A stretch of DNA of 64,000 nucleotides from a virus: the IMG/VR virus record IMGVR_UViG_3300036770_006434, positions 64,001 through 128,000 of that record, one strand, 5' to 3'. Positions 5,054-54,700 of the stretch are shown here, in pieces; the first letter of the stretch is position 1, and every line of letters starts with the position of its first letter. Under the pieces are notes generated by a model. That model was given only the letters and a program-made list of their open reading frames with translations, did not search any database and was not told the origin of the DNA. Both the position numbers and the translations under genes were made by a program.

Positions 5054-5875
5054 TCAGGCGGGATTCAGTATACCGCCGGCAGAGATTGTAAACTGTTGGG
5101 TGACAGTGGTTTCGTCATAGACCTGAGTGATCACACTCTTGGAGGGCCAGACAAAGGCGGAGAGCACCCCGTAACCGCGCTTAACGTAAGCTGCCCCGGT
5201 GTCTATCATGGCGTAACTGGGGGTTATTGCAACCTCTTTCTCGGGGGTATGGCCGAAAACGCGGAATAGGCCGTCATCTCGCTCATTTCCTGTAGCTGGA
5301 TCGCGGGAAAACGGGCCATCACCTGACCGATGACGACCCCACAGAGTCTGGAACCATTCCTCATGATCGGCGTTGAGGCCGTATCCGGTATGGCTTACCA
5401 TCAAGCGGCGGCCATTTTCGTCCAATTGATTGGAGGGATACAGGTAAGGTGGAAGTCCCTCCATCCAGTCCAGCACATCTTCCGGCGCCCTGCCGCCAAG
5501 GTGCCTGTCTCGTTCGCGCTCAATGCGTTTCGTCGGTGAGTCCAGATGCCTCTTGTCGATAATGGGCCAGTTACGCACTGCTTCGTCGCCGCCGTTGTCA
5601 AGCCAAACGCCATGAGCATACATCTCCGCACATTTGGCATCCCGGTTGTAGAACGCTAAGGCAAGCGATTCATGGTTGCCCATAACTGTGGGGATACCGT
5701 GCTTCATGGCCAACTCCACGACCGCGCGCGAATTGGGTCCACGGTCAATCAGATCGCCGCCAAAAACGATTTGGCTCTGAACCCTGATCTTGCCCAACAG
5801 ACGAATCAGGGTATTGATGCATCCGTGAATGTCGCTGATGCAAATTACTGGCAGATCGGTGTGCAAAGTGGTCAT
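5054..5875 (-). CDS. PPP-family Ser/Thr phosphatase or ApaH-like metallophosphoesterase
   Basis: SDIHGC, GDLIDRGP, MGNHE, VFGHTP and IDTGA motifs. Confidence 0.9.
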   Translation of the reverse strand: MTTLHTDLPVICISDIHGCINTLIRLLGKIRVQSQIVFGGDLIDRGPNSRAVVELAMKHGIPTVMGNHESLALAFYNRDAKCAEMYAHGVWLDNGGDEAVRNWPIIDKRHLDSPTKRIERERDRHLGGRAPEDVLDWMEGLPPYLYPSNQLDENGRRLMVSHTGYGLNADHEEWFQTLWGRHRSGDGPFSRDPATGNERDDGLFRVFGHTPEKEVAITPSYAMIDTGAAYVKRGYGVLSAFVWPSKSVITQVYDETTVTQQFTISAGGILNPA

Positions 5876-6603
5876 GTAACTGCGTTGATTCCTTCCACCC
5901 TCTGTTGCGCTATGCGGAAGTAGGCTTCGTCCTGTTCGATGCCGATGTAGCGACGCCCCGTGTTCTTGGCGGCCAAACAGGTGGTGCCGGAGCCCATGGT
6001 GTTGTCTAGGACGACCTCTCCCTCGTTGGTGTAAGTGCGAATGAGGTATTCCATGAGGGCGACGGGCTTTTGAGTTGGGTGGACCTTATCTGCATCGTAA
6101 TCAAAGCTCAGCGTTAGGCGCGGGTAGTTTGTGAACTCCTGCATATTACTGTTGCCCGATTTACCAAAATTCCCTCCATTATGCCCTCGGCGAGTGACCT
6201 TGCCATAGGGGACAAGTCCTTGAGGATTATAGGTCGGCTGTTTACGGTAGAATACAAGGATGTCCTCGTAATTCTTCATCGGCATCCGCTTAGCGTTTAG
6301 GTGCCCTGTAGCGTTGCCCTTAATCCAAACCCAACTGTAGCGTAGGTTTGACGCGTTGGACGCTCCAAGGATACTGGTAAACGGTTGAGAGGCGGTAAAC
6401 ACCATCGCGCCATTCTGCTTGACGATACGATTGTATTGAGCCCAAAGAGGTTCAAGAGTGATTATGCTATCCCAAGTATTCTGGGTAGAACCATATGGGA
6501 GGTCACAGATAACCGCATCCACCGATCCATCAGGTATCCTCTTCATCATCTCCAAGCAATCACCCAAACACAGGGTATTTGGCAATATAGGATTATCAAT
6601 CAT
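5872..6603 (-). CDS. Beta-class DNA N4/N6 methyltransferase
   Basis: GDCLEMM, DLPYG (motif IV), HPTQKP and DNTMGSGTT (motif I) in beta order. Start at MIDNP (6603). Confidence 0.9.
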   Translation of the reverse strand: MIDNPILPNTLCLGDCLEMMKRIPDGSVDAVICDLPYGSTQNTWDSIITLEPLWAQYNRIVKQNGAMVFTASQPFTSILGASNASNLRYSWVWIKGNATGHLNAKRMPMKNYEDILVFYRKQPTYNPQGLVPYGKVTRRGHNGGNFGKSGNSNMQEFTNYPRLTLSFDYDADKVHPTQKPVALMEYLIRTYTNEGEVVLDNTMGSGTTCLAAKNTGRRYIGIEQDEAYFRIAQQRVEGINAVT

Positions 6604-9130: not shown

Positions 9131-10275
9131 GTTTTGTCCGTGACCAGCTTGAGGAATTTGCCGAACAGGTAGCTAGACAGGGTCTTGTCGTCTTCCAGTA
9201 GTTTATAGAGATTGTCCACGCCCTGAATCTTTTCCGGCACTTCTACGCCGGTTTTCTCCAAGATTTCGGCGCGAATCTCTTCTGTGAAGCGAAACCACCC
9301 CCCAGTGCGCTGGACCATCTCCCACCCCATCATCAAATCAACAATTTCACGCTCCACCCAAACCGACGACGCGTTCTTGCGGTTATACTTGATGGGATAA
9401 CGGATTTCTGTCCCATACTTCTCGTTATTGCTCTTTACGATCTTGGCGCGACAGTAGTGGCCGATCACCTTGCCGGACTTTTCGCCGCCTTCCCGGATGA
9501 TGTCATCGTTGAATCGCGGCAGGAACTCCAGAACCCAGTCGCCGGCATGTTCCACGGCGTGACCACCGGAGGCACCGCCTTGTCGCGGCGGGGTCTTTTC
9601 ATATGGATTCAGCTTAATAGACTCGCGGACTTGGGAAATGAACCAACAGATGTGACCGCGCTTGGCCAAGGCCGCGCTGGTTTTCTTGAGGAAGACACTG
9701 GTCAAAAGAGACCCGCCAGCCACTTGCCCGGCCTGCTCCAAAGGTTTGGCCAAATCATCGCGTTTCGCCATCATGTCCAAGGAGTCGAGAATAAAGAAAT
9801 AGCGGGTGTTCTGGGGGTTGTTGCGGATCAATTCGCCCATGAGCCCGAAAACAGCCTCATACACATTGGACTCGAACACGAAACAGGTTCCGTCCACCCA
9901 CTTCTCGGAATCGGTGACAAATGTCACACCGGAACGCTCTTTGACCTCCTTGGACAAGCGGCCCTCGGCCTTGACGTAAAGACCCCTGTAACCATCGCCG
10001 TTTTGGAGGAAATGATGCATGAGGTCCAGAGTAAAACTGGTCTTGCCGCCGGCCGTGATCCCAGTGGCGCGGTGGGCGCCCGGGGTAATGCCGCCGTCCA
10101 TGTGAGCGGTAACCGTCAGGCTAGAGGCGCGGACGCGGTAATCATTGTCGTCTTCAAAGTTGTAGTGATCCGTTTTATTGGCCTTGAGAAAGGATGTTAC
10201 CTGCTGCTGGGGAGTGACTCCGTTTTCGGACGGATCAGTGTCATCAGCTTTATTCTTATTTGTGGTTTTTGCCAT
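9127..10275 (-). CDS. recA: RecA/UvsX-like recombinase
   Basis: Walker A GITAGGKTS; Walker B FILDSLD; ISQVRE; GGHAVEHA. Confidence 0.85.
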   Translation of the reverse strand: MAKTTNKNKADDTDPSENGVTPQQQVTSFLKANKTDHYNFEDDNDYRVRASSLTVTAHMDGGITPGAHRATGITAGGKTSFTLDLMHHFLQNGDGYRGLYVKAEGRLSKEVKERSGVTFVTDSEKWVDGTCFVFESNVYEAVFGLMGELIRNNPQNTRYFFILDSLDMMAKRDDLAKPLEQAGQVAGGSLLTSVFLKKTSAALAKRGHICWFISQVRESIKLNPYEKTPPRQGGASGGHAVEHAGDWVLEFLPRFNDDIIREGGEKSGKVIGHYCRAKIVKSNNEKYGTEIRYPIKYNRKNASSVWVEREIVDLMMGWEMVQRTGGWFRFTEEIRAEILEKTGVEVPEKIQGVDNLYKLLEDDKTLSSYLFGKFLKLVTDKT

Positions 10276-10284
10276 AGTGTAAAA

Positions 10285-11997
10285 TTATTTGGAAATCAGT
10301 CTTTTATAGAGTGTTGCAAATGCTTTTGCGGCGACATCTGGGTCAACACCGTTTCCGAGGAGTCGCAGCTCGTCAGTGCGGGAGAATCCGTGGTTGGTTG
10401 CTTCGTTATAGGCCCGGAGCGTCCACGTCTCTTCGTTAAATTGGGATCGCCATACTTCTTGAATCGCTGGTGGTGTTTCTGACAGAACCCATTGCGCCGC
10501 GCCGGACTCCCGCACGCTTTGCACAGAGAGCGTTCCTTCCACGGGCGCTTCCCCTCTTTCCAGTGCAATTTTGTATGACAGGACGCACAAAGTGTAAGCA
10601 AGTTCTCGGGCGAGTTGTTCGCGGGATTCCTGTCCTCGTGATGAATCCCTAGATTGTCCTCGGAGCCACATTGATGGCAGACCGAATCCTTTAACTGGGT
10701 CGCCCGCTTGTATAGCCCAGACAGCGAAACAGACTCTTTGAGGGAATGCTGTGAACTGCAATCCAGATTGCAGAACTGTCTCCGCAAGAACACCGCCCGG
10801 TCCTCCAGTCGGCCATTGTATCTCTTGCGTTGCATTTCTTTCCCACAATGAGAGCAGTGCTTGATAAGCACGGAGTGTTTGGCTTTCATAGGTTACGGAC
10901 GAACCCACCCTATTGGAAGCCCCATGAGAGAACAAACCCAATCCGGGTTCAACTTGCCCGATTTCGTCGCTCCCGCCCCCTCCGTCTGAGCTGGCAGATC
11001 CTTGGCTTCTCCCTTGTATGCTCGCCCTTGCTGCCCCTTCCAGTCGCGCGTTTGAGGGGTATTCCACTGATTGTGAACCTGCTCCTCCAACCGAAACTTG
11101 CCCGTGTCCATTGTGTTCCCGCCCATCTGAGACCGAGGGGTGCCCCACTGGGCTTGGCCCACTTGTGTCTCCAGATTGGGGAATCGGTCCTGATTCCAGA
11201 CTGACTCGGGAGTGATCGTTGCTGCCATTGCACTGCATGAGCGCGGAGTTGCCCACTGACTTGTGGATGACTCGGGTTGGCTCCCACCACCATTGATCTC
11301 GTCCGGGAGGCTTTGGTCGTAGATAAACGTTCCGTTGTGGTGAACCCATTCCCTCAGATTCCCGCAACCACCCTTGGTTCGCGCGCGATCCAGAGCAGTT
11401 TGACCCTTGGGCGGCACCGTGTCCATCGTGCATGGGGTCGGCCAATTGGGCAAGGATGAAAACCCGCTTCCGTTGATGGCTCGCCCCGATTTCAGCCGAA
11501 CTGAATACTCCTGCCGTTGCTCGGTAACCCACTCGCTCCAGCTCTCTAAGGACATGGAGCAGAACGGGCGTTCCTGCGGGGTCTCGCCAGTCGGTTCCGG
11601 CGAGCTTGGCGCTGATGATTCCCTCGACATTCTCAAGGAAGACGAGTTGGGGCTGGCACTCGGTGATACCTCTGAGGATGTGAGGAAACAGGTGTCTAGG
11701 GTCTTCGTCTCCTCCACGCTTCCCTGCTGCGCTGAAGGGCTGACAAGGGAAGCCTCCAGAGAGGATGCCCACTTTGCCGCGAAAGTCGGCCCAAGGGAAG
11801 GTCTTAACATCCGTCCAGATAGGTGCTGCGTCCAAGAGTCCCGCTTCCATTTTAGCGACCAAGTTCGCACAGGGGAAGGCTTCGATCTCACTAAAAGCGA
11901 CTGTGCGCAGATTGGGGATAACTCGGCTGAGTCCGATATCAATGCCGCCGTATCCGGCACAAAGGCTGATGTGTGTAAAGGCTTTGGTAGAATCCAT
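10285..11997 (-). CDS. DNA cytosine-C5 methyltransferase, alpha frame (motifs I-VIII and X, no IX)
   Basis: SLCAGYGG (I), GGFPCQPFS (IV), LENVEG (VI), HQRKRVF (VIII), ELRLLGNGV (X). The ~330-aa stretch between VIII and X is abnormally long. Confidence 0.9.
   Translation of the reverse strand: MDSTKAFTHISLCAGYGGIDIGLSRVIPNLRTVAFSEIEAFPCANLVAKMEAGLLDAAPIWTDVKTFPWADFRGKVGILSGGFPCQPFSAAGKRGGDEDPRHLFPHILRGITECQPQLVFLENVEGIISAKLAGTDWRDPAGTPVLLHVLRELERVGYRATAGVFSSAEIGASHQRKRVFILAQLADPMHDGHGAAQGSNCSGSRANQGWLRESEGMGSPQRNVYLRPKPPGRDQWWWEPTRVIHKSVGNSALMQCNGSNDHSRVSLESGPIPQSGDTSGPSPVGHPSVSDGREHNGHGQVSVGGAGSQSVEYPSNARLEGAARASIQGRSQGSASSDGGGGSDEIGQVEPGLGLFSHGASNRVGSSVTYESQTLRAYQALLSLWERNATQEIQWPTGGPGGVLAETVLQSGLQFTAFPQRVCFAVWAIQAGDPVKGFGLPSMWLRGQSRDSSRGQESREQLARELAYTLCVLSYKIALERGEAPVEGTLSVQSVRESGAAQWVLSETPPAIQEVWRSQFNEETWTLRAYNEATNHGFSRTDELRLLGNGVDPDVAAKAFATLYKRLISK
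10296..10889 (-). CDS. HNH endonuclease nested out of frame inside the C5 methyltransferase gene
   Basis: CSHC...FCNLDC Zn ribbon; CHQCG...IHHEDRNPANNSPENLLTLCASCHTKLH HNH motif; CKAC...FCQKHHQRFKKYGDP tail. Confidence 0.85.
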   Translation of the reverse strand: MKAKHSVLIKHCSHCGKEMQRKRYNGRLEDRAVFLRRQFCNLDCSSQHSLKESVSLSGLYKRATQLKDSVCHQCGSEDNLGIHHEDRNPANNSPENLLTLCASCHTKLHWKEGKRPWKERSLCKACGSPARRNGFCQKHHQRFKKYGDPNLTKRRGRSGPITKQPTTDSPALTSCDSSETVLTQMSPQKHLQHSIKD

Positions 11998-12013: not shown

Positions 12014-12418
12014 TTACTCTTTGTCCGCCCATTCCGCCATACTCAGCTTCTTGGGCTTAACCTCTGTCTTGGGGGCTTCCCCACTATCCGTCAAACTATC
12101 CAGTATGCCGCATTTGTCAACCCATTTCAGCAAATCCTCTTTCTCCAACTGGTGGGTAACCCAGAACTCGCGGAGGGCGGCCTGACCGTTTTCTGTCAGA
12201 AGATAGGACAGGCTTTCCAGCTTTTCGTGGGGGCGGAGATTGAGCCAAAACACTTCGTCGGGATACGATTTGCGGAGTTTGGACAGGATTTTGAGTTCTC
12301 GGCCCCAGACCCCCGGCTGTCTCAGGGCTTCCGGCTTCAAGAGCCGCGCGAGGATGGAGCAGGAGATTCCGGCGGGGGATAGGGGGTCTATGGGTTTGCG
12401 GAATTTCTTCCAAGTCAT
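12014..12418 (-). CDS. Hypothetical protein (134 aa)
   Basis: ATGA overlap with the thyX stop; in operon. Confidence 0.65.
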   Translation of the reverse strand: MTWKKFRKPIDPLSPAGISCSILARLLKPEALRQPGVWGRELKILSKLRKSYPDEVFWLNLRPHEKLESLSYLLTENGQAALREFWVTHQLEKEDLLKWVDKCGILDSLTDSGEAPKTEVKPKKLSMAEWADKE

Positions 12419-14166
12419 AGATTAAAAGCGGCGATAGTGTGCTTGAACGGGTTGCCCTCAATCTCTTTAACAAGTCTCAGCATTTCGGCGACAACCATCT
12501 GCGTTTCCTTTTGGGCATCGGGTTTCAGCCGCAGGTTGCAGAGATGGACGAAAGCGAGAAAACTGCCGGTCCAAATAAAAGTTGTTTCGAGACAGAGAGG
12601 AAGAATGACCCGGCATTGCTCCTTAGCGACACCGAAATCTTCCATTTCCCGGTATAGCTTTTGGGCGGCGTCCACCAGTTCCTGCATTTTAAGCCGGAAG
12701 TTTTGGTTGTCAGACGCTTCAAGATCGCCGGCACTTCCCTGCTTGCTGGACTTGGACTGATAGCGGAGTTGCTCCGGAATATCGTAGGAATCGGAAAAGT
12801 CCACGTATCTGCCCGAAATGGAATTTGCAGAATTGTGAACGACCATGCCATTTGCAACAAAATTTTTCCATTTTCCATCAATTTCAATGTCGTATGTTTC
12901 CTCTGTCCCAATTTTTAAAATTGACACGATTTTTGAAAAACCAACTTTTAAACGAGCCTTAGAGCGGTCTCCAATTCTTTTTTTATAAATGAATGGAACA
13001 AAATCTTTGGAAGAAACTTTTTCTGCAAATTCAATTTCATTTTCCAAGCTAAAATGGATTTTTTTGTGACAATCTTCGCAAACAGTTATTAGATTGTCAA
13101 AATCCATACCTTTTGACGGATTTTGAGCTACTGGAATAATGTGGTGAGCGTGTAATTTGCCACTGCTTTCTCCACATTTTTGACAGGTAAAATTGTATTT
13201 TTTGTGAACATTATGCGCGTTCCGCGTTGACCAAACGGCTATCAAATCCCGATTTTCAGTTATGCCACCTCGCCAAAAATGACTATTCTCTCCCTTTCTT
13301 GCATTATTTTTTGCATGTAATACCTTGTTTTTATAACTCTCTTCTGTAAAATTTAGGGAATAACCTTTTACGTTTTCATTCCAAGGTCTGTTGCCGGGCT
13401 TAAAACAAGTTTCCTCTTTTGAAAAACAAAGATTATGTATTTTAAGCCATTTTCTAATAGTATGATAAGACACTTTGCAATCACATGCCATTTCTTCAAC
13501 AGACATTTTTTTATCTCTGCACAGTTTCAAATAATTATAATCTCTATAGTTTCCATTACCCGCTACGGAAAGCCCATTTGTTGCAATGAAGTCAGCCAGA
13601 CCCAAACCGTCGGTGATAGTTTTCCAACCATCTTTTGTAAAAATCTTATGATCTTTTGAACACTTTAGACTCTTTCCGTCTTGCAGGGTGATTTCATATA
13701 TTTCTTTTACCCCGGATTTGAAGACATTTTTGATATTTGACGTTTCAAAAAAACCATTATCCTCGTTTAAAACCCTTATTTTTCTGCCGCTAATTCTTCT
13801 TTGTTGATATTCTTTGTCTTTGGGCGTGTTCTGGTGGGGGCGACCATTTTCCCATTTTTCATATAAGTCTTTTATCTTTATCTTTTGGATTTTACCAGAA
13901 GCCTGTTTGAAATAGATTTCCGAATCGCCTGACAAACACCAGCCGATTTGGTGCTTAAACAGTTGTCTCTCAACGAAGATCGCGCATTTTACTCGGAACT
14001 GCAACTGGGAATGGCGGAAGGGCGACGTATGATTGTGGGCGACAAGGTATTTCAGAAGTTTTTCGTCCTTTTCGTCAAACGCTTCCTTGGTCTTCCCGTA
14101 GCTAACGCGGGCCACGTTCGCGGCCATCAAATCGCCGCCAAAATAGTCTAGGAGTTCGGCCTTCAC
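12415..14166 (-). CDS. thyX: Flavin-dependent thymidylate synthase ThyX containing an intein
   Basis: ANVARVSY, HTSPFRH, RQLFKHQIGW|SANSISGRY (ThyX motif split by the intein), KEQCRVILP, NLRLKPDAQKE. Confidence 0.92.
   Translation of the reverse strand: MKAELLDYFGGDLMAANVARVSYGKTKEAFDEKDEKLLKYLVAHNHTSPFRHSQLQFRVKCAIFVERQLFKHQIGWCLSGDSEIYFKQASGKIQKIKIKDLYEKWENGRPHQNTPKDKEYQQRRISGRKIRVLNEDNGFFETSNIKNVFKSGVKEIYEITLQDGKSLKCSKDHKIFTKDGWKTITDGLGLADFIATNGLSVAGNGNYRDYNYLKLCRDKKMSVEEMACDCKVSYHTIRKWLKIHNLCFSKEETCFKPGNRPWNENVKGYSLNFTEESYKNKVLHAKNNARKGENSHFWRGGITENRDLIAVWSTRNAHNVHKKYNFTCQKCGESSGKLHAHHIIPVAQNPSKGMDFDNLITVCEDCHKKIHFSLENEIEFAEKVSSKDFVPFIYKKRIGDRSKARLKVGFSKIVSILKIGTEETYDIEIDGKWKNFVANGMVVHNSANSISGRYVDFSDSYDIPEQLRYQSKSSKQGSAGDLEASDNQNFRLKMQELVDAAQKLYREMEDFGVAKEQCRVILPLCLETTFIWTGSFLAFVHLCNLRLKPDAQKETQMVVAEMLRLVKEIEGNPFKHTIAAFNL
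12832..13938 (-). mobile_element. 369-aa intein with an HNH homing endonuclease
   Basis: Starts CLSGDSEI and ends VANGMVVHN before Ser(+1). Block B CSKDHKIF; block F TYDIEI; internal CQKC...HAHHIIP...NLITVCEDCH. Strongly AT-rich relative to the exteins. Confidence 0.93.
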
Positions 14167-43780: not shown

Positions 43781-44688
43781 GTGATACTGTTGTAAACCGA
43801 TTCAATCCTGCGGGCCACCCCGGCAGGTGACACCTTCTCTTTGAGGTTCAGGTTAAAATGGGATCGCAGCCGCAGCTTCATCTCCCTCATCCTGTCCCCG
43901 GACTCCTCGTTTACGAAATGCGAGATAAAGGCGGCGATTGACCGGGGGGTCGGATGGACATCCTCGTATTCAGGGAATAGGTCGGTGGGGAAGAGTTCCT
44001 CGCGAGTGGTCAGATCGTTACAGATAATGGGAATAGCGCCCGCCGCCGCGCTCTCCAACGGCGTCAATGAAAGTCCTTCAATTTTTCCCAAGCAGAAAAC
44101 GAAGTCCACCGAGTTATACACGATATTCAGGTTCTCGTCATTCAGAACCCCAAGATAGTCACCCCAACCGGGCTCGTTCCCGACAAGGCATAGGTCATTT
44201 TGCGTATACCCAAGGGTGTTGAGTGCCAGAGCGCCGAGGTTAAACCGTTTATTGGCATCCTGCCGGCGGCCCACATGGGCGAAGCGGTAGAACGGCTTGC
44301 GCGTCAAGTCCGGTCTGTGGGCGGCGGGCTTGATGGGCTGGTAGATAACCGTGGACTCAATCCCCAGATACTCTTTCAGCTGCCATTGCCCATACTCGGA
44401 AATGGCGCAAACCGCATCGGCGGCGACCAGTTGATCCCTAAGTCCACCCATATCGAAATTCGGCAAAAGGTGTATCGGGACATCCAAGCAGGTCAAAATC
44501 ACCTTGGCTCCCGGCTTAATCGTGCCATTGGACTTGTCTTTGACCACCTGTTCGTGCGAATTGTTGGAATACACCAAGTCCGCTTCGGTGATATACTCCG
44601 TTACCTCCCACCCGATTTCACGGAATCCATCCGCGATTCGCGGCACTTGCCCGGCAAAGTGAGTCGCGCCGTTTAGCCAGACCTTCAT
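43777..44688 (-). CDS. GT4 (GT-B) glycosyltransferase
   Basis: AISEYG; HVGRRQDANKR; EGLSLTPLESAAAG (EX7E). Confidence 0.85.
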   Translation of the reverse strand: MKVWLNGATHFAGQVPRIADGFREIGWEVTEYITEADLVYSNNSHEQVVKDKSNGTIKPGAKVILTCLDVPIHLLPNFDMGGLRDQLVAADAVCAISEYGQWQLKEYLGIESTVIYQPIKPAAHRPDLTRKPFYRFAHVGRRQDANKRFNLGALALNTLGYTQNDLCLVGNEPGWGDYLGVLNDENLNIVYNSVDFVFCLGKIEGLSLTPLESAAAGAIPIICNDLTTREELFPTDLFPEYEDVHPTPRSIAAFISHFVNEESGDRMREMKLRLRSHFNLNLKEKVSPAGVARRIESVYNSIT

Positions 44689-44951
44689 GCCTCGTCCTCT
44701 TTTTCCGCAATGGACAGGTATTCGTCCTGCGGCACTAGCTCGGACAGGATTTGGGAATCCACCCCGCCGTTAGTCCCCAAATACCCGCGAAGTGCAGCCA
44801 GAGCCGTGTCCAAATCGTCAAAAGTGCCGACCGGCGCACCGTCCACCCCGACATACCAGATGCGGACATACTCGTTGTCAGTGGGTTTTCCTGTTTTTTC
44901 CTTGAAGGCCGCTGCCGAGGAAGCGGGGGACGTGTGTTTGGAGTGAGACAT
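44685..44951 (-). CDS. Hypothetical protein (88 aa), first gene of the leftward arm
   Basis: Start at MSHSK (44951). The longer ORF-track extension runs through the promoter and is probably spurious. Confidence 0.6.
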   Translation of the reverse strand: MSHSKHTSPASSAAAFKEKTGKPTDNEYVRIWYVGVDGAPVGTFDDLDTALAALRGYLGTNGGVDSQILSELVPQDEYLSIAEKEDEA

Positions 44952-44986
44952 GGGATTTATGCGATATTGAATGGCGGCAGTTTCCA

Positions 44987-45014
44987 ATGATAAGGATACT
45001 GGTAAGTGAGTCAA
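44987..45014 (-). promoter_or_regulatory. Sigma70-like promoter TTGACT-N16-TATCAT (leftward)
   Basis: 35 nt upstream of the ATG at 44951. Confidence 0.75.
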
Positions 45015-45242
45015 GTCAAAAAGGTAAACCAGTATCAAGAGATAGATTCTAACGTAAACAACCACAACTACCACACAGTTCCACTTCCCCCAGTTCACCC
45101 TAATATATGTCCTGTTCTTTTTTGTTGGGCCAAAACCTGTGTTACGGAAATGTGTCGTAAATCGGACAGTTTGAACGGCCAAACTGTTTGTGGGCTAAAC
45201 CATTGACGATAGATGAGTTATGAAAATAATGCGACTTTATGC

Positions 45243-45270
45243 TTGACATATCGCACAACTGTTGTATAAT
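45243..45270 (+). promoter_or_regulatory. Consensus sigma70 promoter TTGACA-N16-TATAAT (rightward)
   Basis: Perfect hexamers; no credible ORF for ~700 nt downstream. Confidence 0.85.
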
Positions 45271-45275
45271 CTGAG

Positions 45276-45885
45276 GAGGCTCGGCGACGAAGATTATGCT
45301 AACCAAGCGAGCCTTAAGCGAGCGCGCATCGTGAGGACAACGTCCGAACGATATAGTTCGGGGCGGTGAACTGGCGGGCGTGAATCTGGTTCATTCGACA
45401 GACGGCGTTCAAGGGGACACATTCTCGCCGCAATGGGCGCGGACGCAAGTCAAAACGGTAACGCGGCCAACAGGGCGATCCTTGCCTTCCAATACTTTCG
45501 ATGTGCTCCAAGCAGCCCATCGAGCGCCTAGCGGCGCACCGACTGCGGGTAATACACTTCGTTAATAAAAAAAACGTATTGAAACCGAGGCTTGCCGAGG
45601 TTAGCCGAGCCTGCGAGGCTTAACGGGGGTGGCAGGGGGTCGCCCCCGCCGTAAAACGTAGGACAGATACGCGATTAACCCTTTAACGGTAAACAAGGAC
45701 TCACGGCTGCCGCTACCCCACGCTTTGCGCTTCACGACAGGCTGGGCTAGCGCCAAATGAAGGGTGTTTAGCGCTTATGGCGGCAAGCGGGAAAAGCGTT
45801 CAACGTTTTACGGTGTCTTGCGCTTCACGACGAATGGGCTGGCGCCTGTAACGGGTGGGCGCTTAATAGGGGTCGAATACCCTTA
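45276..45885 (+). ncRNA. Candidate long structured non-coding RNA (alternatively a hairpin-rich replication origin)
   Basis: Many stem-loops, including two repeated hairpin modules, beginning at the predicted start site. Confidence 0.45.
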
Positions 45886-45978
45886 ATGAGATATATTCTC
45901 AATTATTTGCTTGCCTACTTTTGCATACTTGCCATTATAGTATGCCATAGACAGACATACACCTACTCTTTTACCTCT

Positions 45979-46386
45979 ATGACCCTTTTGGATATCCAGA
46001 ATCAGATAGTAAACCACTTCTCCAGTAGCTCCTCGTCTTTCTCCCTTGCCGCGAATCTGGCGGCAATCAAGGTGCCGGCCACCTTTTCGGAGCACAAAGC
46101 GGCCATGGTAAAAGCAGTCATGGCGGAATTGGAGAAAATGGGTATGGTCAAACCTCTGGACGCCGAAACTTGGATTCTGACCTCCCCGCTGGGCAGCAAT
46201 GGGCAGCAAATCGAGATTTCCTACGCCCTTTCCAACGCGATTGCCGAGGAAATCAAGGCTTACGCCGATGCCAACGACTTGGAATGGACGGTTGACCCGC
46301 TCAACCTCCATGAGGGCAACTTCCTCATGCTTTTAGCCATTATCAATGACCTTCGGTCGGATGACCCGGAAGGCGACGAAAGCTGA
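45979..46386 (+). CDS. Hypothetical protein (135 aa)
   Basis: Start at MTLLD (45979); acidic C-terminus. Confidence 0.65.
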   Translation: MTLLDIQNQIVNHFSSSSSSFSLAANLAAIKVPATFSEHKAAMVKAVMAELEKMGMVKPLDAETWILTSPLGSNGQQIEISYALSNAIAEEIKAYADANDLEWTVDPLNLHEGNFLMLLAIINDLRSDDPEGDES

Positions 46387-46399
46387 ACCATTTTTTACT

Positions 46400-46690
46400 A
46401 TGACCACCTTCACCGGACCACTCGAAACCACTATCTTAGCTGCCCTCAGTCTGTGGGCGGTTTTTTACCTGATCAATTACGCGGACATCCTGAATAAACC
46501 ACGGGACTTCTTCAAGAAATTCTCCCCGAACTGGCTGAAATACCTGCTTTCCTGCGCGCTGTGCTTCTCGTTCTGGGCGCTGACCGCTATCTCGCTATTC
46601 GTCGGGTTTACCCCGCTGATCCTGTGGACACCGGTCGTGACGCTGTTTGTGGAACTGGGGTTCCGAAAACTGGCGGGAAAAGACAAGTAA
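46400..46690 (+). CDS. Small membrane protein, DUF1360-like
   Basis: Hydrophobic helices and LLSCALCFSFW (LLxCxxC...W). Confidence 0.55.
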   Translation: MTTFTGPLETTILAALSLWAVFYLINYADILNKPRDFFKKFSPNWLKYLLSCALCFSFWALTAISLFVGFTPLILWTPVVTLFVELGFRKLAGKDK

Positions 46691-46691
46691 A

Positions 46692-47168
46692 ATGAACAAT
46701 TATCCATTCAAGTTTCGGGTATGGAGCGAAACCGCCAAGCAGTGGATGAACCATGTTGCCGTGATAAACTGCCAAGGAGAGGTTTTTAGCCATTTCGTGG
46801 AGGTAAACGAAGAAAAACGCGAGGCGCGCGACCGTCTTGTCAATCTTGCTCGTCACCAGCCCGTGGTTGAACGGTGGACCGGTCTTGTAGATATCAACGG
46901 CAAAGAAGTGTATGAAGGGGATATTTGCCGCGAGAGTTGGACCGCGCCTTGCGGCCAAATGGAGTCGATTTATGTGGTGCGTTTTGGAGCGTATAAAGAT
47001 GGCGAGGGTTTTCCAAACGTCGGATTTTATACAGATAGCGACCTCAGCGACGAAACACTCGTTAATCCCGGCGGAAACTTATACCCAAACAACGACCGAT
47101 GGTATGTTGTTGGGAACATCCATGAAAACCCTCGTCTTTTAACTCATTCGTCCACATCTATTCCATGA
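46692..47168 (+). CDS. YopX-family phage protein
   Basis: KFRVW, WTGLVDINGKEVYEGDI, VVGNIHENP. Confidence 0.9.
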   Translation: MNNYPFKFRVWSETAKQWMNHVAVINCQGEVFSHFVEVNEEKREARDRLVNLARHQPVVERWTGLVDINGKEVYEGDICRESWTAPCGQMESIYVVRFGAYKDGEGFPNVGFYTDSDLSDETLVNPGGNLYPNNDRWYVVGNIHENPRLLTHSSTSIP

Positions 47169-48307
47169 TTGAAAAACTCAATGTCCGCGTAGCCTGCAAC
47201 AGCCTAAGTCTTGGACAGGTCGGCTTTAATATCGTCCGCGAACTGTATAAGCGCAGAATCAAGTGTTCCATCTTCCCGTATGGTGGCGTTGACTTGTCTG
47301 CCTACAAAGTGGACCCCCAATTCGGGGCTTGGCTCACCAAATCGGTGAACGAGCGGTATACGTCCCTAGATAGGAAAATTCCCACCCTGAATTGCTGGCA
47401 CCTGCGGGATTCCGAACTCCGGCTGAGTGACAAACAGGTTACGCTTTCGTTTCACGAAACGGACCAGCCGACGAATGAAGAGGTCAATATCGTAAACCAG
47501 CAGGATTACACATTTTTCTCCTCCTCTTGGTCGGTGGACAACTTCCTGACATTTGGCGCGAAAAACGTGGGCTTCGTCCACCTTGGGCTGGACCCCGATT
47601 TCGTGCCGGCCGCCGGTTCGATGTTCCCGCCGGAAGTGACCCATTGGATTTGTGTCGGCAAATGGGAGGACCTGCGCAAGATGACTGGGCAGAAAATCGC
47701 GACTTGGATCAAGAGGTATGGCGGGAATCAGAGCCATCAATTGACCATTTGCGTGAACAACCCGTTCTATCAGAAGCGCCGGCTTCCCGACGGTCGGGTG
47801 GAGGGGTTTGACATGAATGACGTGTATGCGCGGCTGTTCGGCAGCGCGGACTGGCCGCGAGCCAAGCCGTCCAACGTTAATGTCCTGCCGCACCTGAAGA
47901 CAAACGCGGAAATGGCCAGTCTCTACCAATCAGCCGACATTGATCTGTCCGGCATCTCCCGCGCGGAGGGGTATAACCTCCCCGCCTTTACGGCGACCGC
48001 TTTCGGCAAGTGGAGTATTGTCACCAACTGTTCTGCCCACAAAGATTGGGCGACAGCCGAAAACAGTATCCTTATCGAGCCGACGGGCAGCGTCAAAGCG
48101 GTGGACGGGTTCTTCTTCCGTGAAGGCGACCAGTTCAGCTCCGGCAATATGTTCGACTTTGCGCCTGATGCCATTGAGGAAGCCATGATTAGGGCGGAAA
48201 AACTGGCGAAGACCCCGAATCCAGCCGGTCTGGAACTCGGTAAAACACTGACTTACAAGCATACGGTTGACCGTATTCTGGATAAAATCGAAGAGATTTC
48301 GGTGTAA
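47165..48307 (+). CDS. GT4 (GT-B) glycosyltransferase
   Basis: FHETD, VGKWEDLRK, RAEGYNLP, TNCSAH. Confidence 0.8.
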   Translation: MIEKLNVRVACNSLSLGQVGFNIVRELYKRRIKCSIFPYGGVDLSAYKVDPQFGAWLTKSVNERYTSLDRKIPTLNCWHLRDSELRLSDKQVTLSFHETDQPTNEEVNIVNQQDYTFFSSSWSVDNFLTFGAKNVGFVHLGLDPDFVPAAGSMFPPEVTHWICVGKWEDLRKMTGQKIATWIKRYGGNQSHQLTICVNNPFYQKRRLPDGRVEGFDMNDVYARLFGSADWPRAKPSNVNVLPHLKTNAEMASLYQSADIDLSGISRAEGYNLPAFTATAFGKWSIVTNCSAHKDWATAENSILIEPTGSVKAVDGFFFREGDQFSSGNMFDFAPDAIEEAMIRAEKLAKTPNPAGLELGKTLTYKHTVDRILDKIEEISV

Positions 48308-48308
48308 C
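48284..48308 (+). promoter_or_regulatory. AAAA-N14-GTGTAAC motif
   Basis: Overlaps the glycosyltransferase stop codon, 24 nt upstream of the ATG at 48333. Confidence 0.55.
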
Positions 48309-48332
48309 CAACTGAATAGACCAATTACTACC

Positions 48333-49052
48333 ATGCCATTTGATCTTTGCGCCATTGCCGGAGTCACATACGAAGACCAGTCTCTTCTCAAAACCGTCCG
48401 AAAGGAAGCTGACAAAAAGTTCTCGAAAGACTCTTATACCAAAAACCTCTGGGTCCTTCGCGAATACAAGAAGCGCGGCGGCAAGGTGAAGTATGAGGGG
48501 CGGAAACCGGCACGAAAGGAAATCAAGAAGCAAGTAACCGCTTCCATTGATTTCGAGATGGAGGCCGTTCGTCTAAGCATTCCCGCCGAAATCGAAGCCG
48601 CCAACGCTTCGGCAGACTCGGATATCCGCGATTTGGTGGAAGACCTTCAGACTTACGCCTATTGTGTGGAGGCTGATGAGGATGATACGGACGGATTCAT
48701 GCAGGACTTTGTGGAAGAGGCGGCGAAAAAGAAGAAGAATGTGAAGCTGAACAAACCGTTCCGCACTCCGGGTGGCCCGAAGAAATTCGCGGTATACGTG
48801 AAGAATGAGAAGGGCAATATCGTGATGGTTAGGTTTGGCGATCCTTCGTCCGAGATAAAGCGCGATGACCCCGAACGGCGTAAGAATTTCCGCGCTCGTC
48901 ATAACTGTGATAATCCCGGCCCAAAAACGAGGGCCAAATTCTGGTCTTGCCGGCTGTGGGCTCGTAAGCCCGTTTCCGACATCGTCGGCAGCGAAAACGA
49001 AAGTGCATTGAAAGAGATTTTTGGCGAAGTAGAGGTAGAAGAGTCAGAATGA
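48333..49052 (+). CDS. Conserved phage hypothetical protein
   Basis: NLWVLREYKKRGGK and KLNKPFRTPGGPKKFAVYVK...RFGD...RRKNFRARHNC...FWSCRLW segments, recalled as widespread in aquatic phages. Confidence 0.6.
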   Translation: MPFDLCAIAGVTYEDQSLLKTVRKEADKKFSKDSYTKNLWVLREYKKRGGKVKYEGRKPARKEIKKQVTASIDFEMEAVRLSIPAEIEAANASADSDIRDLVEDLQTYAYCVEADEDDTDGFMQDFVEEAAKKKKNVKLNKPFRTPGGPKKFAVYVKNEKGNIVMVRFGDPSSEIKRDDPERRKNFRARHNCDNPGPKTRAKFWSCRLWARKPVSDIVGSENESALKEIFGEVEVEESE

Positions 49053-49837
49053 AGTATTACGTATACGTTATTTTAGACCCATTTACGGGTCCATATGATT
49101 GTTTTGAACACCATCCTATCTACATCGGAAAGGGAACTGGAAACCGTTGCGAAATGCACCTAAAACTCGGATTTGAAGAAGACTCAAACAGGGTAAAAAG
49201 TTCTAGAATAAAGAAAATAATGTCAAAAGGTAAAAAACCTGTGATTTTGAAGGTTTTTCATACGGATGACGAGACCGAAGCATACGAACACGAGGAGTCT
49301 TTGATAGCAAAATATGGAGTTTTTGGTGATGGTATTTTGACAAATCTAACCCCAAGTTGTAGACCACCAAGCAGAAAAGGCGCGATTATATCACAGGAAC
49401 AAAGAGATATTGTTGGAAAAGCCGCCAGAAAAAGACTTTTAGGTAAGACATATGAAGAATTATACGGAGACCGTGCCGAAGAAGTAAAAAAGAAGATTGG
49501 GGCCGCAACCAGAAGACGGGCAAAAGACATTAAAACGGAAACTCGCGAAAAACTGAGCAAATCAAACGTTAGATCATACGTGGAAATATATGGATCAGTA
49601 GAAGAGGCGGAAAGACATAAAAAAATACGATCAGAAGCAAGAAAAGGGAAGAAAAGAACTCCAGAGCAAAGAGCGAGAATGGCAGAGTTAAATAGAAAAA
49701 CAAGAGAAAAATTTGGAAACGACAAAAGCAAAACTTGGAATGGAGTTAGGTATAATACTACCAAAGAAGCAATAAAAGCGTCAGGTCTTTCCTCGGGAAG
49801 ATTTTACAAATTCTTACATAGCACACAAACGAATTAA
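49049..49837 (+). CDS. GIY-YIG homing endonuclease with NUMOD3-like repeats
   Basis: YYVYVILDP...IYIGKGTGNR...EESLIAKYG...LTNL; basic helical repeats. AT-rich. Confidence 0.85.
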   Translation: MKYYVYVILDPFTGPYDCFEHHPIYIGKGTGNRCEMHLKLGFEEDSNRVKSSRIKKIMSKGKKPVILKVFHTDDETEAYEHEESLIAKYGVFGDGILTNLTPSCRPPSRKGAIISQEQRDIVGKAARKRLLGKTYEELYGDRAEEVKKKIGAATRRRAKDIKTETREKLSKSNVRSYVEIYGSVEEAERHKKIRSEARKGKKRTPEQRARMAELNRKTREKFGNDKSKTWNGVRYNTTKEAIKASGLSSGRFYKFLHSTQTN

Positions 49838-49846
49838 CCTCACTCT

Positions 49847-50266
49847 ATGCCCGCTTACGATTTTGAGAATCCAGAAACCGGAGAAGTCATTTCCGCCTAT
49901 ATCCCTTTGACTGCGCCTGACTCTGCGCGCCAGTTCCAAGTGATTGACGGCAAGACCTATAAGCGTGTCTACTCCTCGCCGCTGGCCGCCGTGGACCTAG
50001 CCACCCGTCAAGGAGATGGAACAAAGAATGACTTTTATCGCGTTACCACGGGTAAACGCGGCATGAAAGTCGGAGACCTTTGGGAAATCTCACAGTCCAT
50101 GAGCGATAAACGTAAAAACCTTATGGGCACGGACCCGGTCCACGAGGAATACTACCGCAATTACGAGAAGGAAAACGGCGAACGCCACTCAGACCTTGTC
50201 AAAAGGGAAAAAGCGGAAAAACTGAATGCCCGGCTGGCGGACATGGGGATCAAGATTAAAACCTGA
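49847..50266 (+). CDS. FmdB-like small protein lacking the Cys ligands
   Basis: MPAYDFENPETGEV...KRVYS. Confidence 0.5.
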   Translation: MPAYDFENPETGEVISAYIPLTAPDSARQFQVIDGKTYKRVYSSPLAAVDLATRQGDGTKNDFYRVTTGKRGMKVGDLWEISQSMSDKRKNLMGTDPVHEEYYRNYEKENGERHSDLVKREKAEKLNARLADMGIKIKT

Positions 50267-50267
50267 C

Positions 50268-50483
50268 TTAGCCGGGGTAAGCGCCCCTAGACTTCATGTC
50301 GGACACCCATTTTTTGCGATGCCCAGCTATATCCCAGTCCCACTTGGCGGTTTCATAACCCACATCGTAGCCAGCTTTTTCCGACATATACCATTTGTGC
50401 TCAAGGATAGCCTGTTTTTCCATCAACCAAGCCGTGTAAAGATTGGACCTTTCAATCGGGAACATCTCTCCGGTAGCGTTCAT
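50268..50483 (-). CDS. Small DUF4032-like protein
   Basis: EKQAILEHKWYMSEKAGYDVGYE.A..DW. Has its own GTGTAAC at 50495-50501. Confidence 0.6.
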   Translation of the reverse strand: MNATGEMFPIERSNLYTAWLMEKQAILEHKWYMSEKAGYDVGYETAKWDWDIAGHRKKWVSDMKSRGAYPG

Positions 50484-50494
50484 TGTCAACAGTA

Positions 50495-50519
50495 GTTACA
50501 CTTGTCGCAACGGGTTTTC
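50495..50519 (-). promoter_or_regulatory. GAAA-N14-GTGTAAC motif
   Basis: 11 nt upstream of the ATG at 50483. Confidence 0.55.
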
Positions 50520-50521
50520 TC

Positions 50522-50549
50522 TTGACTACCTGACAAATACCTCCATAAT
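50522..50549 (+). promoter_or_regulatory. Sigma70-like promoter TTGACT-N16-CATAAT
   Basis: Upstream of the putative ssb gene. Confidence 0.7.
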
Positions 50550-50637
50550 AGACTTTTGCTGAAATCCGTGTCGGTCACAAGCCACTCGGGTCTAGGCAGA
50601 TACCAAACAAAAACCAAACACAAAACCAAATACTACC

Positions 50638-51387
50638 ATGGCACTTAGCAATGGATCAGGCACAAACAACTCCGGGCCGCTCGTCTTTTTGAGCGCCCGT
50701 TCAAAGATCAAGGGCTCAGATGGAAAAGACGTGGAACTCGCCAAGCCCTATTTCGAGATTTCCCGCGTAAACGACGAGGGTCAGATCGTAAAAACCGACG
50801 AGACCGCGACCCGAGTGGAAGGAGACCTTGTAGCTATCAAACTCAAGGTCCGTGAATACAACGGCAAAAAGACCCCTCATGTAGTCCTTTACGTTCAGGA
50901 CAATAACCCGGAAGCTGAAAAGAAGGAAACCTACTCTCTGGATTTGACGCACCGCATCTCGACCCGATCCCTGTTCAACGCCATCCTCTCGCTGGAGAGC
51001 CCGAAGAATATCGCGATCAGTATCTACAAGTCGAAAAAGGGTTACGAATCCTTTGGGCTGGATCAGGACGGCGAAAAAGTGAAGTGGAAGTATGAAATTG
51101 CCGATCTTCCCGCCGCCGAAGTAATCAAGGACAAGAGGGGCGAAGTCATCAAAACGGATCACAGCGATGTTGACGCCTTTTTCGAGACCGAACTCAAGGT
51201 GTTGGCCGAAAAGTTCGGGTTCAACACCGGGAATAAGTCGGACAACAAGCCGGCCACGGATGAGACCCCGACTCCTGCCGCGACTCCCGCTGCCAAGCCT
51301 GCTGCAAAGTCCACTGGCAAACCGGCCGCCAAAGCCGCCGCCAAGCCGGAGCCCGAACAGAACGACGACGATAGCGTGCCGTTCTAA
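50638..51387 (+). CDS. Putative single-stranded DNA-binding protein
   Basis: Beta-rich core, PAAK linker and acidic tail ending DDDSVPF. Confidence 0.7.
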   Translation: MALSNGSGTNNSGPLVFLSARSKIKGSDGKDVELAKPYFEISRVNDEGQIVKTDETATRVEGDLVAIKLKVREYNGKKTPHVVLYVQDNNPEAEKKETYSLDLTHRISTRSLFNAILSLESPKNIAISIYKSKKGYESFGLDQDGEKVKWKYEIADLPAAEVIKDKRGEVIKTDHSDVDAFFETELKVLAEKFGFNTGNKSDNKPATDETPTPAATPAAKPAAKSTGKPAAKAAAKPEPEQNDDDSVPF

Positions 51388-51413
51388 TCGGGACTGAAAT
51401 AAGACCCCACTCG

Positions 51414-51448
51414 CCCCGTTCGCCGGATTCTCTGGCAACGGGGTTTTT
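51414..51448 (+). terminator. Rho-independent terminator
   Basis: CCCCGTT/AACGGGG stem followed by TTTTT. Confidence 0.75.
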
Positions 51449-51466
51449 GGGTAAGGAACGGTAACT

Positions 51467-51673
51467 ATGGACGCTACACAATTTACATATTGGCTCAAAG
51501 GGTATACGGAACTCGGGGGAGACTGCCCGACTCCGGCGCAGTGGGAAGTAATCAAGGAGCATTTGGATTTGGTGTTTAACAAGGTAACGACGAAGACGGT
51601 GACATCTCCAAGTCCTACCCCTACATACTGCACGAATGCTGCGGTAAATTACACCAATTTAGACCTAAGCTAG
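51467..51673 (+). CDS. Hypothetical protein (68 aa)
   Basis: QFTYWLKGYTE...QWEVIKEHLDLVF, a small phage-type ORF. Confidence 0.65.
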   Translation: MDATQFTYWLKGYTELGGDCPTPAQWEVIKEHLDLVFNKVTTKTVTSPSPTPTYCTNAAVNYTNLDLS

Positions 51674-51709
51674 AATAAGTCAAACCCCATCATTCGCTGT
51701 TAACTTTCT

Positions 51710-54700
51710 ATGTCCCGCAAAAAGAAAATCGTTCTTTCCACCAACCCGCCTTGGCTCCACACCGGACTGGCGGAAAACGGTCGCTTTCTGGCACAATGGT
51801 TGTATAAGACCGGAAAATATGACCTCTCCTATTACTGCTCCCAGTCCAGTGTGGCGGACCCCAATCACGGGCGGCAACCTTGGAAGAGTCGCGGCTGTAT
51901 CCCGAACGACCCCAACATTATCCAACAGCTGAATCAGGACCAGAACCGCGCCAGAATGGCATCATACGGCGGGCTGCTCATCGGACAAGTGGTAAAAGAG
52001 GAACAACCGGACATCCTGTGGTGTTCGGACGACGCTTGGGCGTTCCCCGGAAACGAGTTTTTCAACGCCCCTTGGTGGAATAAAATCAATCCGATTCTCC
52101 ACATCACGGTAGACTCTCTCCCCATTCTGGAACAGGCGTATGATCAGGCGAAAGTGACGCCCAATTTTTTTACGTGGGCCAAATTCGGGTCCACCGAAAT
52201 GCGGAAACGTGGCCCGGAATGGGCGCATACCAAGCAGATTTACGGCGCGACGAATGTAAACAATTTCTCTCCGGTTTCAGCGAACGAGAAAGCGGAGTTG
52301 CGGCGACGGTTCGGTATCGGGCAGAACACACTGGTATTCGGATTCACGTTCCGTAACCAGTTGCGAAAAGAAGCGCTTTCCGTCCTTCGCGCGTTCCAAG
52401 AGTTTACGAAACTCCACAAAACGGTTGACGCAAAACTCCACCTGCACACGAGTTGGAGTGAAACCGCGAACGGATGGGACATCCCGAAGTTCATCAAACT
52501 CTTCGGTGTAAATCCCGAAAGCGTGCTCTGCACTTACGTTTGCAAAAACTGCGGGAACTGGCACATCTCCCCGTATCGCGGCGAGGATCAGAACTGCCCG
52601 TATTGCGGGGCGCAGAAGTCCATGGTAACCGCCAATATCAATCACGGTGTTCCGGATGAGGAAATGAAATATGTCTACGGCATCCGTGACGCGACAGTTT
52701 CCGCTTTCACCTCCGGTGGTCTGGAATTCGAGAACGTGAATACCCTCCTTTGCGGACTCCCGCTGGCCAGCACCAATTACTCGTGCGGTCAGGATTTCTG
52801 CGAGCAACCGTTTGTGACTCCTATCGACTGGCATTTCCGCAATGAGGCTGGCACCTCTTTCATCAAGGCCACCAACGATATCGGCTCCATCCGGAAGTTC
52901 ATGGAAAAGATTTCTGCCATGTCTCTTGCGAAACGTCAGGAAATCGGAGAAATCGGGCGGGATTGGGCGAAGAACACGTTTTCCATCGAGTCTATTGGGC
53001 CGCAGTGGGAGCAAGTTTTCGACGCTTTGCCGCCAAAAGATTGGTCCTCCATCTCCCTTACGCCGCCGCGCAAGAACGAGACTTATCCTATTCCCCAGAT
53101 TCAGGATGATCAAGCATGGGTGACGGCGCTGTATAACAATATCCTTGTCTGTCAGCCCGACCCCGATGGGCTCAAACACTGGATGTCCCAGCTGAAATCG
53201 GGAATCACGCGAGACGCGATCTATCAGTTTTTCCTCAAGATTGCCCGCGAGGACAACGCCAAGCTGGAGCCGCCGAAAGACTTCTCATCCCTGTTTGACG
53301 CAAATGATAGGAAGAAAATCCTCTTCGTAATGAAGGAGTCCGGCGGGGACCTGTTTATTGCCAGTGCCCTGTTCAAGGGACTGAAGGCTCTATACCCCGG
53401 AGCAGACCTATACGTTGGGTGCGAACCCAAATTCGCGGAAATCATTGCTGGAAATCCCTATGTTCACAAAATCCTGAGCTACCACCCGGCCATGGAGCAG
53501 GAACTGGTCATGCGCAACTACGTTGACCATTACTACTTCCCGGCGGTCCAGACGCAAAGACAACTCGGGTATCTGACCCGCAAGTTGACGCTGGCCCAGA
53601 CCTACGCGCACGCATCCGGCGTTGAGTTGGACAAACCTTGGATTCTGTCCACGTTTTTCCCGCTGGATCATCCGGTCGAAAAATCTATTCTGATCCACGC
53701 CTTTGCCGGGGCCACGGTAAACCAAAACGGGCAAATCCACGCCACGTTTCCGGCCAAAATCTACGATCACTTCAATGACGTGGTCCAGCTCCTGAAACCA
53801 ATCGCGGAATCTCTCGGCTACAAACTGTATCAGATCGGCGGACCCGGCGAACCCGGCTTGAAGGGAATAGAGTCTCTGGTCGGAAAAACGAGCATGCACC
53901 AATGCGCGTATCTGGTCAAAAACTGCGCGCTCCTTATCGGGAATGACTCCATGTGGGCTCATATCCGAGGGGGCGAAATGAAGCCACAGGTCCATATCTA
54001 TGGCTCAACTTCATCCCCTCATTTCCCACACTGGCGCGACCCCGAAAAGTCGTTTTTGATCGAGTCCCATCGCGGCGGCAAGAAACCCAGTTACGCGGCT
54101 GTAGAAACCCCCAAGACGATCAACTGGATCACGCCGGAAGAGATCGTGAATACGTCCCTCAAAGCGATTGGAGCTGAACGGCGCGTGACCCAGAAATCCA
54201 TTCTGTTCGGCGATGCCTACCATGTGGCAGCGGTCGAGCTTGTGCCCAACTGTATTGTCGGTCCACAAGTTCAGATGCCGGGACCTCTGGTGGTCAGAAT
54301 GGATTATGTGTCGGACGCAAAGGCGGCAGAGCCCCATCTCCTCTCCAATCTACAGATCAGGCCGTGCCTGATTATCACGGACAAGGAATTGGACCTGAAC
54401 CTTTTGCGACAGGCCAAGCCGAGGATCACAGCGTTGCGCGTAGAGGTTGACAAAGTAAGTCCCGAATGGGTCAAGCAGGTCAAAAAGATCGGTATCCCGA
54501 CGGCGTTTTTCTCATCGGAACAGGACCCCGAAAAACTCGCCAAGCTACGGTTGGACTATTACGATACCTGCGTTTTCGACCATTTTCAACCGCCTAAGAA
54601 AGAGGAGTTTGAAAAACTTGCGGCAACATACCTGAACAAATCTCTTGACGCAGGTGGCATACCTGCTAACCTAAGGTTTGCTACAAATAAATTCCTTTTA

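Follow-up and report, generated by a model that had tools for sequence, protein, structure and literature searches.

What is the gene-free tract that lies behind a perfect promoter at the strand switch of this large phage? The phage record is 190,671 bp long and has direct terminal repeats (DTR). The window, i.e., the whole stretch of 64,000 nucleotides (nts) that we analyzed, is bases 64001 to 128000 of that record, and coordinates below refer to the window unless the genome or a relative is named. The gene orientation map agrees with the initial annotation, which was made from the sequence alone, in placing the tract at a strand switch, and this is the main divergent one: replication genes run leftward, and small genes followed by virion genes run rightward. 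The leftward side encodes replication and nucleotide functions (DnaB-like helicase, exonuclease, UvsX-like recombinase, and NrdA), and the rightward side has small genes, YopX, glycosyltransferases, and a GIY-YIG endonuclease before the virion genes. The features of the locus are given in Table 1.

TABLE 1 Features at the divergent strand switch, in window coordinates
Feature	Position	Strand	Basis or remark
First leftward gene, 88 aa	44685–44951	−	ORF list; codon log-odds, +0.15; called in public records; no family
Leftward promoter-like site, TTGACT-N16-TATCAT (10/12)	44987–45014	−	~36 nts upstream of the ATG at 44951
AT-rich spacer (40% GC) separating the divergent promoters	45015–45242		Promoter and repeat scans
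P1, TTGACA-N16-TATAAT, 12/12 sigma-70 match	45243–45270	+	Promoter scan
5′-proximal stem-loop, GAGGCTCG (45276–45283)/CGAGCCTT (45308–45315)	45276–45315	+	8 bp, one G-U; predicted transcript start
Island homologous to L010 27–170	45563–45701	+	nhmmer, E = 1.8e-5; identical 16-mer and 17-mer
A-run in the island	45564–45574
Four tandem CGAGGYT units, 9 to 10 nts	45585–45623		3′ of the A-run
Hairpin GGC-A-GGGGG/CCCCC-GCC	45631–45650		In the island
Block GATACGCGATTAACCCT	45666–45682		In the island
Lineage-specific insert, absent from L010	45702–45860	+	159 nts; bears most of the ~50-nt module duplication
7-bp hairpin, 5-nt loop	45867–45885	+	3′ end of the GC-rich tract; no T-run after it
P2 region, with block TCTCAATTATTTGCTTGCCTA at 45897–45917	45897–45941	+	Block 21/21 identical in L010
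P2, proposed: TTGCCT, 19-nt spacer, TATAGT	45911–45916, 45936–45941	+	Read from the sequence
First rightward gene, 135 aa	45979–46386	+	Residues 1 to 76, predicted winged helix

The gap between the leftward 88-aa gene and the rightward 135-aa gene (44952 to 45978) is non-coding. Codon-usage log-odds per codon were −0.15 to −0.38 in the frames of the gap versus +0.19 ± 0.06 in genes (+0.24 and +0.15 in the two flanking genes), and the gene calls in the public records of three identical contigs place nothing in it; both uphold the earlier statement that there is no credible ORF before 45979. The six-frame ORFs and tblastx among the tracts, together with the codon log-odds and the public calls, also speak against a gene or pseudogene in the tract. 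The tract itself (45271 to 45885) is 57% GC, with AT-rich promoter regions on either side. Within the spacer that separates the divergent promoters are a 14-nt direct repeat (45121 to 45134 and 45170 to 45183) and a second rightward promoter-like site (45203 to 45230, 10/12). There was no terminator-like site in a scan of 44500 to 46500.

Two other regions of this genome may be mentioned here. A 583-aa ORF (12415 to 14166, minus strand), whose C terminus matches thymidylate synthase and whose residues ~218 to 387 match HNH endonuclease families, sits on a dip in GC content (13001 to 14000, 36% versus 52% for the genome); it has the look of an insertion into thyA, of the homing-endonuclease, intein, or intron type. 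Outside the window, ~7 kb of the genome (~45,500 to 52,900) is gene poor; its minus strand bears at least nine tRNA genes, with long non-coding stretches between them. A tRNA scan of the window found none.

Relatives of the locus were found by an exhaustive HMMER search with the 135-aa protein, which gave ~160 distant homologs, and the genomic contexts of a dozen were examined. These are metagenomic contigs, several of them incomplete, and nine had usable upstream DNA. Neither blastn and tblastn searches against GenBank phages nor scans of IMG/VR with the proteins encoded on either side of the gap gave a match, and a homolog search with the 88-aa leftward protein found no relatives. Three public contigs were identical to the window except for one single-nucleotide polymorphism (SNP) and thus are uninformative for covariation.

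The layout of the locus recurs in the nine contigs: a strong P1 is followed by 170 to 900 ORF-free nts, then by P2, and then by the homolog of the winged-helix gene. In the relatives a leftward glycosyltransferase gene comes first, then an ORF-free gap of 530 to 1,100 nts, P1, tract, and P2, with the second promoter immediately upstream of the gene. The tract is headed by a TTGACA −35 element (usually CTTGACA) and a usable −10 element in L011, L012, L016, L017, L019, L261, and L262; in L018 P1 is TTGAAA-N17-TATAAT. CTTGACA occurred on the plus strand of 8 of 12 tracts and on the minus strand of 1, and the maximum for any 7-mer in shuffled sequences was 5. The tracts have almost no sequence in common with one another; GCGAAGC and the promoter hexamer aside, no 7-mer occurred in half of them.

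P1 is as good as had been claimed: the 190,671-bp genome has no other perfect (12/12) match, on one strand or the other. Its context, TGCTTGACAT, is common to L011, L012, and L017, and its spacer contains the palindrome ACAAC-T-GTTGT (45255 to 45265). Perfect inverted repeats of at least 5 bp were found in the P1 cores of 5 of 9 loci versus 14% of genomic 29-mers (P = 0.0045), which suggests that these repeats are operators. The stem that had been reported at the predicted transcript start is present as written. Its first 12 nts, GAGGCTCGGCGA (45276 to 45287), which we call motif A, are common to relatives. Motif A begins 5 to 8 nts past the −10 element in this phage, in L017 (exactly, twice), and in L019 (with one change), and each of the three has a second copy or variant mid-tract. 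In this genome motif A is limited to the P1-tract locus; no linkage to a promoter was found elsewhere, either in this genome or in G001, the complete 205-kb DTR phage that is the record behind L017. When the first 50 nts after P1 were pooled from nine loci, they folded better than shuffled sequences (mean z, −1.38; Stouffer, −4.1), but those of this window alone did not (z, −0.4). The first 50 nts after P1 in L261 include a stem capped by C(UUCG)G.

The initial annotation had called the tract hairpin dense. All of the stems that it listed (AGGCTTG/CGAGCCT at 45588 to 45594 and 45606 to 45612, CCGAAC/GTTCGG, GCGCC/GGCGC, and GGGGG/CCCCC) are present as written, but their density does not exceed chance. 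The folding energy of the tract (z, −1.37, or −1.74 with 100 shuffles) fell within the background of random 450-nt windows from the same genome (−1.18 ± 1.06). Stems of 6 bp or more were not enriched, only 5-bp Watson-Crick stems were (22 versus 12.6; P, ~0.02), and none of the cited hairpins, folded singly, had a z below −1.5. In sliding 120-nt windows, z was below −2.5 only at 45271 to 45390 and 45791 to 45910. Averaged over the class, the z of whole tracts was about −2.3 on the gene strand and about −1.9 on the other strand, versus −1.18 for the controls; the folding excess of the class is thus modest and comes partly from one locus.

No known RNA family was recognized in the initial annotation, and none was found in the 64-kb window with Rfam 15 at the gathering threshold. 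When 44900 to 46050 was searched at E values up to 5, there were only two chance-level matches (E, 1.3 and 4), and the loci of seven relatives gave no match. The tract resembles the RNAs ROOL and GOLLD (Rfam) in size class (~0.6 kb) and phage context but differs in having no match to Rfam 15 at E values up to 5 and no excess folding energy. The signs of covariation are anecdotal and come from L010, the sole relative that could be aligned within the tract: an apparent compensatory change (G-C at 45651/45687 versus U-A in L010) rests on a hand alignment; RNAalifold run on this phage and L010 misaligned a hairpin arm, and its result was left out.

Comparison with L010 revealed which parts of the tract are conserved. 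The two phages, whose adjacent genes are 60% identical (DNA), have identical runs of 16, 17, and 21 nts and the 139-nt nhmmer match in common; 45861 to 45967 aligns weakly (nhmmer) with L010 174 to 280. CGCGATTAACC, from the island at 45563 to 45701, was found in L262 too. Taken over the relatives, the conserved parts are short islands only: GAGGCTCGGCGA at the start, 45563 to 45701, and the P2 block at 45897 to 45917. Within the second of these, the hairpin at 45631 to 45650 keeps its stem in L010 but has a 22-nt insert there in place of the 3-nt loop, which, as one case, fits a hairpin better than it fits a duplex site. The tract is not a random spacer, since distant relatives keep it in the same place and with some of the same sequence.

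The conspicuous repeats behave differently. The repeat of the annotated module is real (14 of 14 bases identical at 45725/45818 and 11 of 12 at 45743/45835); it spans ~50 nts (45725 to 45777 versus 45818 to 45865, 93 nts apart), with a local score of 52 versus 32 or less in shuffles. The pairing proposed for it, and the argument that an A-to-G change preserves that pairing as G-U, did not hold up: in both copies the first GCGC is paired in the minimum free energy (MFE) fold with the third instead of the middle one, and since GCGC is self-complementary, the change favors neither pairing. L010 lacks 45702 to 45860 and has a single CGAGGYT unit versus four in this phage. Since the modules are absent from this best relative, they are lineage specific. 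They are likewise not recognizable (45725 to 45865) in 178 nts of L007, whose adjacent gene is 81% identical (protein) and which has only promoter-proximal patches in common with this phage. (The ENA contig of L007, k119_77659, opens with a Nextera mosaic-end adapter at L007 1 to 20, so its start is nonphage DNA.) These comparisons indicate that the modules are a lineage-specific tandem duplication rather than the core of an RNA class and that they and the extra CGAGGYT units are recent local expansions. The module pattern had no match in IMG/VR; two looser motif patterns had at least 120 matches each, mostly chance level, and among the matches listed only L081, from the same record as L017, carries the gene. 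Thus, of the new class of non-coding RNA with repeated protein-binding hairpins that had been proposed, the non-coding status, the strong-looking promoter, and the lack of an Rfam family stand, but the modules are lineage specific and there is no excess of structure. A CRISPR-like mini-array was dropped as an explanation of the modules; the copies differ by indels and are spaced 93 nts apart. CAAATGAAGGGTGTTTA is a 17-nt exact match between the first module copy (45754 to 45770) and genome positions 11103 to 11119 (E, 0.01), and its core, AAGGGTGTTTA, is present in the P2 spacer of L010.

Could the tract be simply a variable cargo slot, with P1 and P2 as tandem early promoters, only promoter-proximal bits functional, and exchangeable, largely unconstrained filler between them? 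The filler would then be cargo that has decayed or been swapped and that lengthens through local duplications. In one related phage (L013 and L014, 2714 to 3931 in each) the slot between the divergent promoters, behind a promoter and hairpin, is filled by a 405-aa gene with no Pfam match, and thus a non-coding leader is not obligatory. Also as expected of cargo, tracts vary from ~170 to 900 nts and are almost unrelated in sequence among relatives, the folding energy is that of the genome background, and local duplication has produced the modules and CGAGGYT units, which L010 lacks or has in single copy. But the tract gave no match in a tblastn search with the 405-aa protein, which speaks against a gene or pseudogene there; motif A occurs twice per tract in three phages; and islands of 16 to 21 identical nts plus a 139-nt match at 60% gene identity look like selection on short elements, not a recent swap. 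We consider the cargo slot rather unlikely. By eye, the 405-aa protein has D-x-S and H-D motifs that may be reminiscent of polymerase palm domains.

A related arrangement is found in the PeSL cassettes of T4-type phages, in which a host-type early promoter is joined to a stem-loop, in many copies per genome, flanking small ORFs (PMC2839356, PMC4122927). The locus resembles PeSLs in having a promoter plus stem-loop (P1 and 45276 to 45315; most relatives also have an early hairpin) that borders a slot of variable content, a 405-aa gene in L013 and L014 and non-coding DNA elsewhere. It differs in that the slot is long and mostly non-coding and in that the perfect promoter, motif A, and the modules occur at this locus only, not as dispersed copies.

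At the other end of the tract, the proposed P2 scored below the threshold of the promoter scan, and its 19-nt spacer is poor. We dropped the P2 block as a T4 MotA box, its spacing to the −10 element being unsuitable. The 135-aa protein that follows was modeled with AlphaFold2 and 35 homologs (pLDDT, 90), and residues 1 to 76 of the predicted structure matched many winged-helix domains (Z, 7 to 8.6); the N-terminal half of the protein is therefore predicted to have a winged-helix fold. Its family (the ~160 homologs are cluster representatives, mostly 125 to 150 aa) has a conserved N terminus, MTLLDI-NQ, and no match in Pfam or PHROGs. The protein is a reasonable candidate for a factor that binds the upstream region; the fold is generic and neutral as to target.

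Because distant relatives keep the same layout, we favor the reading of the tract as a transcribed control leader: it would serve the rightward operon as control region and as a long untranslated leader, with P1 as the promoter. As drawn from the sequence, we judge this reading to be about evenly balanced between right and wrong. The data do not support a new RNA with a demonstrable fold, nor do they support an origin of replication. In the favored reading, host RNA polymerase would initiate at P1, at about 45277, inside motif GAGGCTCGGCGA, and the first 40 nts of the RNA would form a 5′-terminal stem-loop, which may stabilize the RNA. The polymerase would cross ~640 ORF-free bases without an intrinsic terminator and read through, past the weaker P2 (45911 to 45941), into the winged-helix gene. 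The functional sites would be motif A, the palindrome of the P1 spacer, and the handful of conserved islands; they would act as operators or, in the RNA, as sites for a factor of the phage or the host, which is possibly the winged-helix protein. The remainder of the tract, duplicated modules included, would be filler that evolves rapidly.

Such leaders have precedents. In phage T7, the tandem promoters A1 to A3 precede gene 0.3, and the leader is removed at an RNase III site. Common to the two are strong tandem host-type promoters that head an early operon and an untranslated 5′ leader of several hundred bases; here there are only two promoters, 640 nts apart, no RNase III-type long duplex was found, and there are conserved islands inside. 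In putL and putR of HK022 and in the lambda PR′ leader, an RNA-level or start-site element lies just past a strong phage promoter, and a long operon follows; the conserved two-stem RNA of put makes the polymerase resistant to terminators. The tract likewise has a conserved element directly after a strong promoter with a long operon downstream, but the context of motif A varies (a stem arm in this phage and a loop in L019), and, in contrast to put, no two-stem fold was demonstrable and there were no terminators downstream in the 2 kb that was scanned.

ColE1 RNA II and T4 oriF and oriG are promoter-dependent origins, and the tract resembles them in that a strong promoter fires into ~0.5 kb of non-coding, G-run-bearing DNA at the boundary of the replication genes. 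In an origin of this kind, transcription from P1 would open the duplex or prime DNA synthesis, the A-run, the tandem 9- to 10-nt units, and the G-rich hairpin would be unwinding or initiator-binding elements, and the winged-helix protein would bind the origin. Consistent with this are the divergent junction adjoining genes for a DnaB-like helicase, an exonuclease, and a UvsX-like recombinase, the four tandem units after the A-run, an RNA-like strand with G-runs (45625 to 45639; GC skew, +0.08), and the predicted winged-helix protein encoded next door. The tracts of relatives are rich in strand-biased NCGNAGN′ mini-hairpins (25 on the plus strand, 8 on the minus strand), a class that a review ties to priming and initiation sites (PMC13037366), but there is none on the plus strand of this phage's tract. 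Nor is there a promoter-like site on the minus strand inside 45271 to 45885, as an antisense promoter of the RNA II type would require. An iteron-type origin would have an array of direct repeats next to an AT-rich unwinding element, kept among relatives; the 9- to 10-nt unit is single copy in L010, and the candidate elements are not conserved there. The GC and AT skews flip with gene orientation and have no separate extremum at 109 kb, and 135 aa is small for an initiator. We judge the transcription-primed origin suggested in the initial annotation to be unlikely. The same genome also has, outside the window, an ORF-free tract of ~1.1 kb (~170,900 to 172,000; L003 1400 to 2500) with several direct repeats of the GGGAAGTCAA type, which are more clearly iteron-like; that tract has leftward TTGACA promoter-like sites and no Rfam or tRNA match, and from its repeats it is a better candidate for an iteron-like origin than the P1 tract.

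Instead of a leader, the P1 transcript might be processed, or end before P2, to give a stand-alone trans-acting RNA, a sponge or decoy that works through short repeats (GAGGCT, GCGCTT, and the ~50-nt modules). The GC-rich tract is set off by AT-rich promoter regions, the tract of every relative has its own internal direct repeats, motifs are strand biased in the relatives, and the copy number of the short unit differs between this phage and L010. Known sponge RNAs vary likewise in the copy number of short units. But there is no terminator or conserved 3′ end upstream of P2, no Rfam match in the window or in seven relatives, and no excess structure; the repeated modules are not conserved; and no significant complementarity was found between the tract and other parts of the genome. 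This makes a trans-acting RNA quite improbable.

If the leader reading is right, the rightward program of a whole group of large, uncultured phages begins with a long untranslated RNA that is linked to a small winged-helix protein, which would give these phages a defined control module that can be tested. A bolder view, which we entertain with considerable doubt, is that P1, tract, and P2 form an undescribed unit of little-known ~200-kb phages, either a leader or non-coding RNA with islands read by the winged-helix protein or a transcription-activated origin with that protein as the initiator. The finding is ordinary if tandem promoters merely have a drifting slot between them. In such a gap the conspicuous hairpins and repeats can be recent local duplications, and the conserved parts are short and easily missed.

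The 7-mer GCGAAGC also turned up in strand-pure arrays of repeats in three IMG/VR contigs that are unrelated to this phage. L153 has 18- and 35-nt tandem GCGAAGC repeats near both ends (327 to 574 and 6162 to 6281), L224 has arrays at 5720 to 5832 and 10234 to 11233, and L233 has three copies (178, 1034, and 2298) of a −10-like box followed by GAGCGAAGCGAGTGG. These arrays are possibly a widespread cassette of a promoter and a GAA-capped hairpin.
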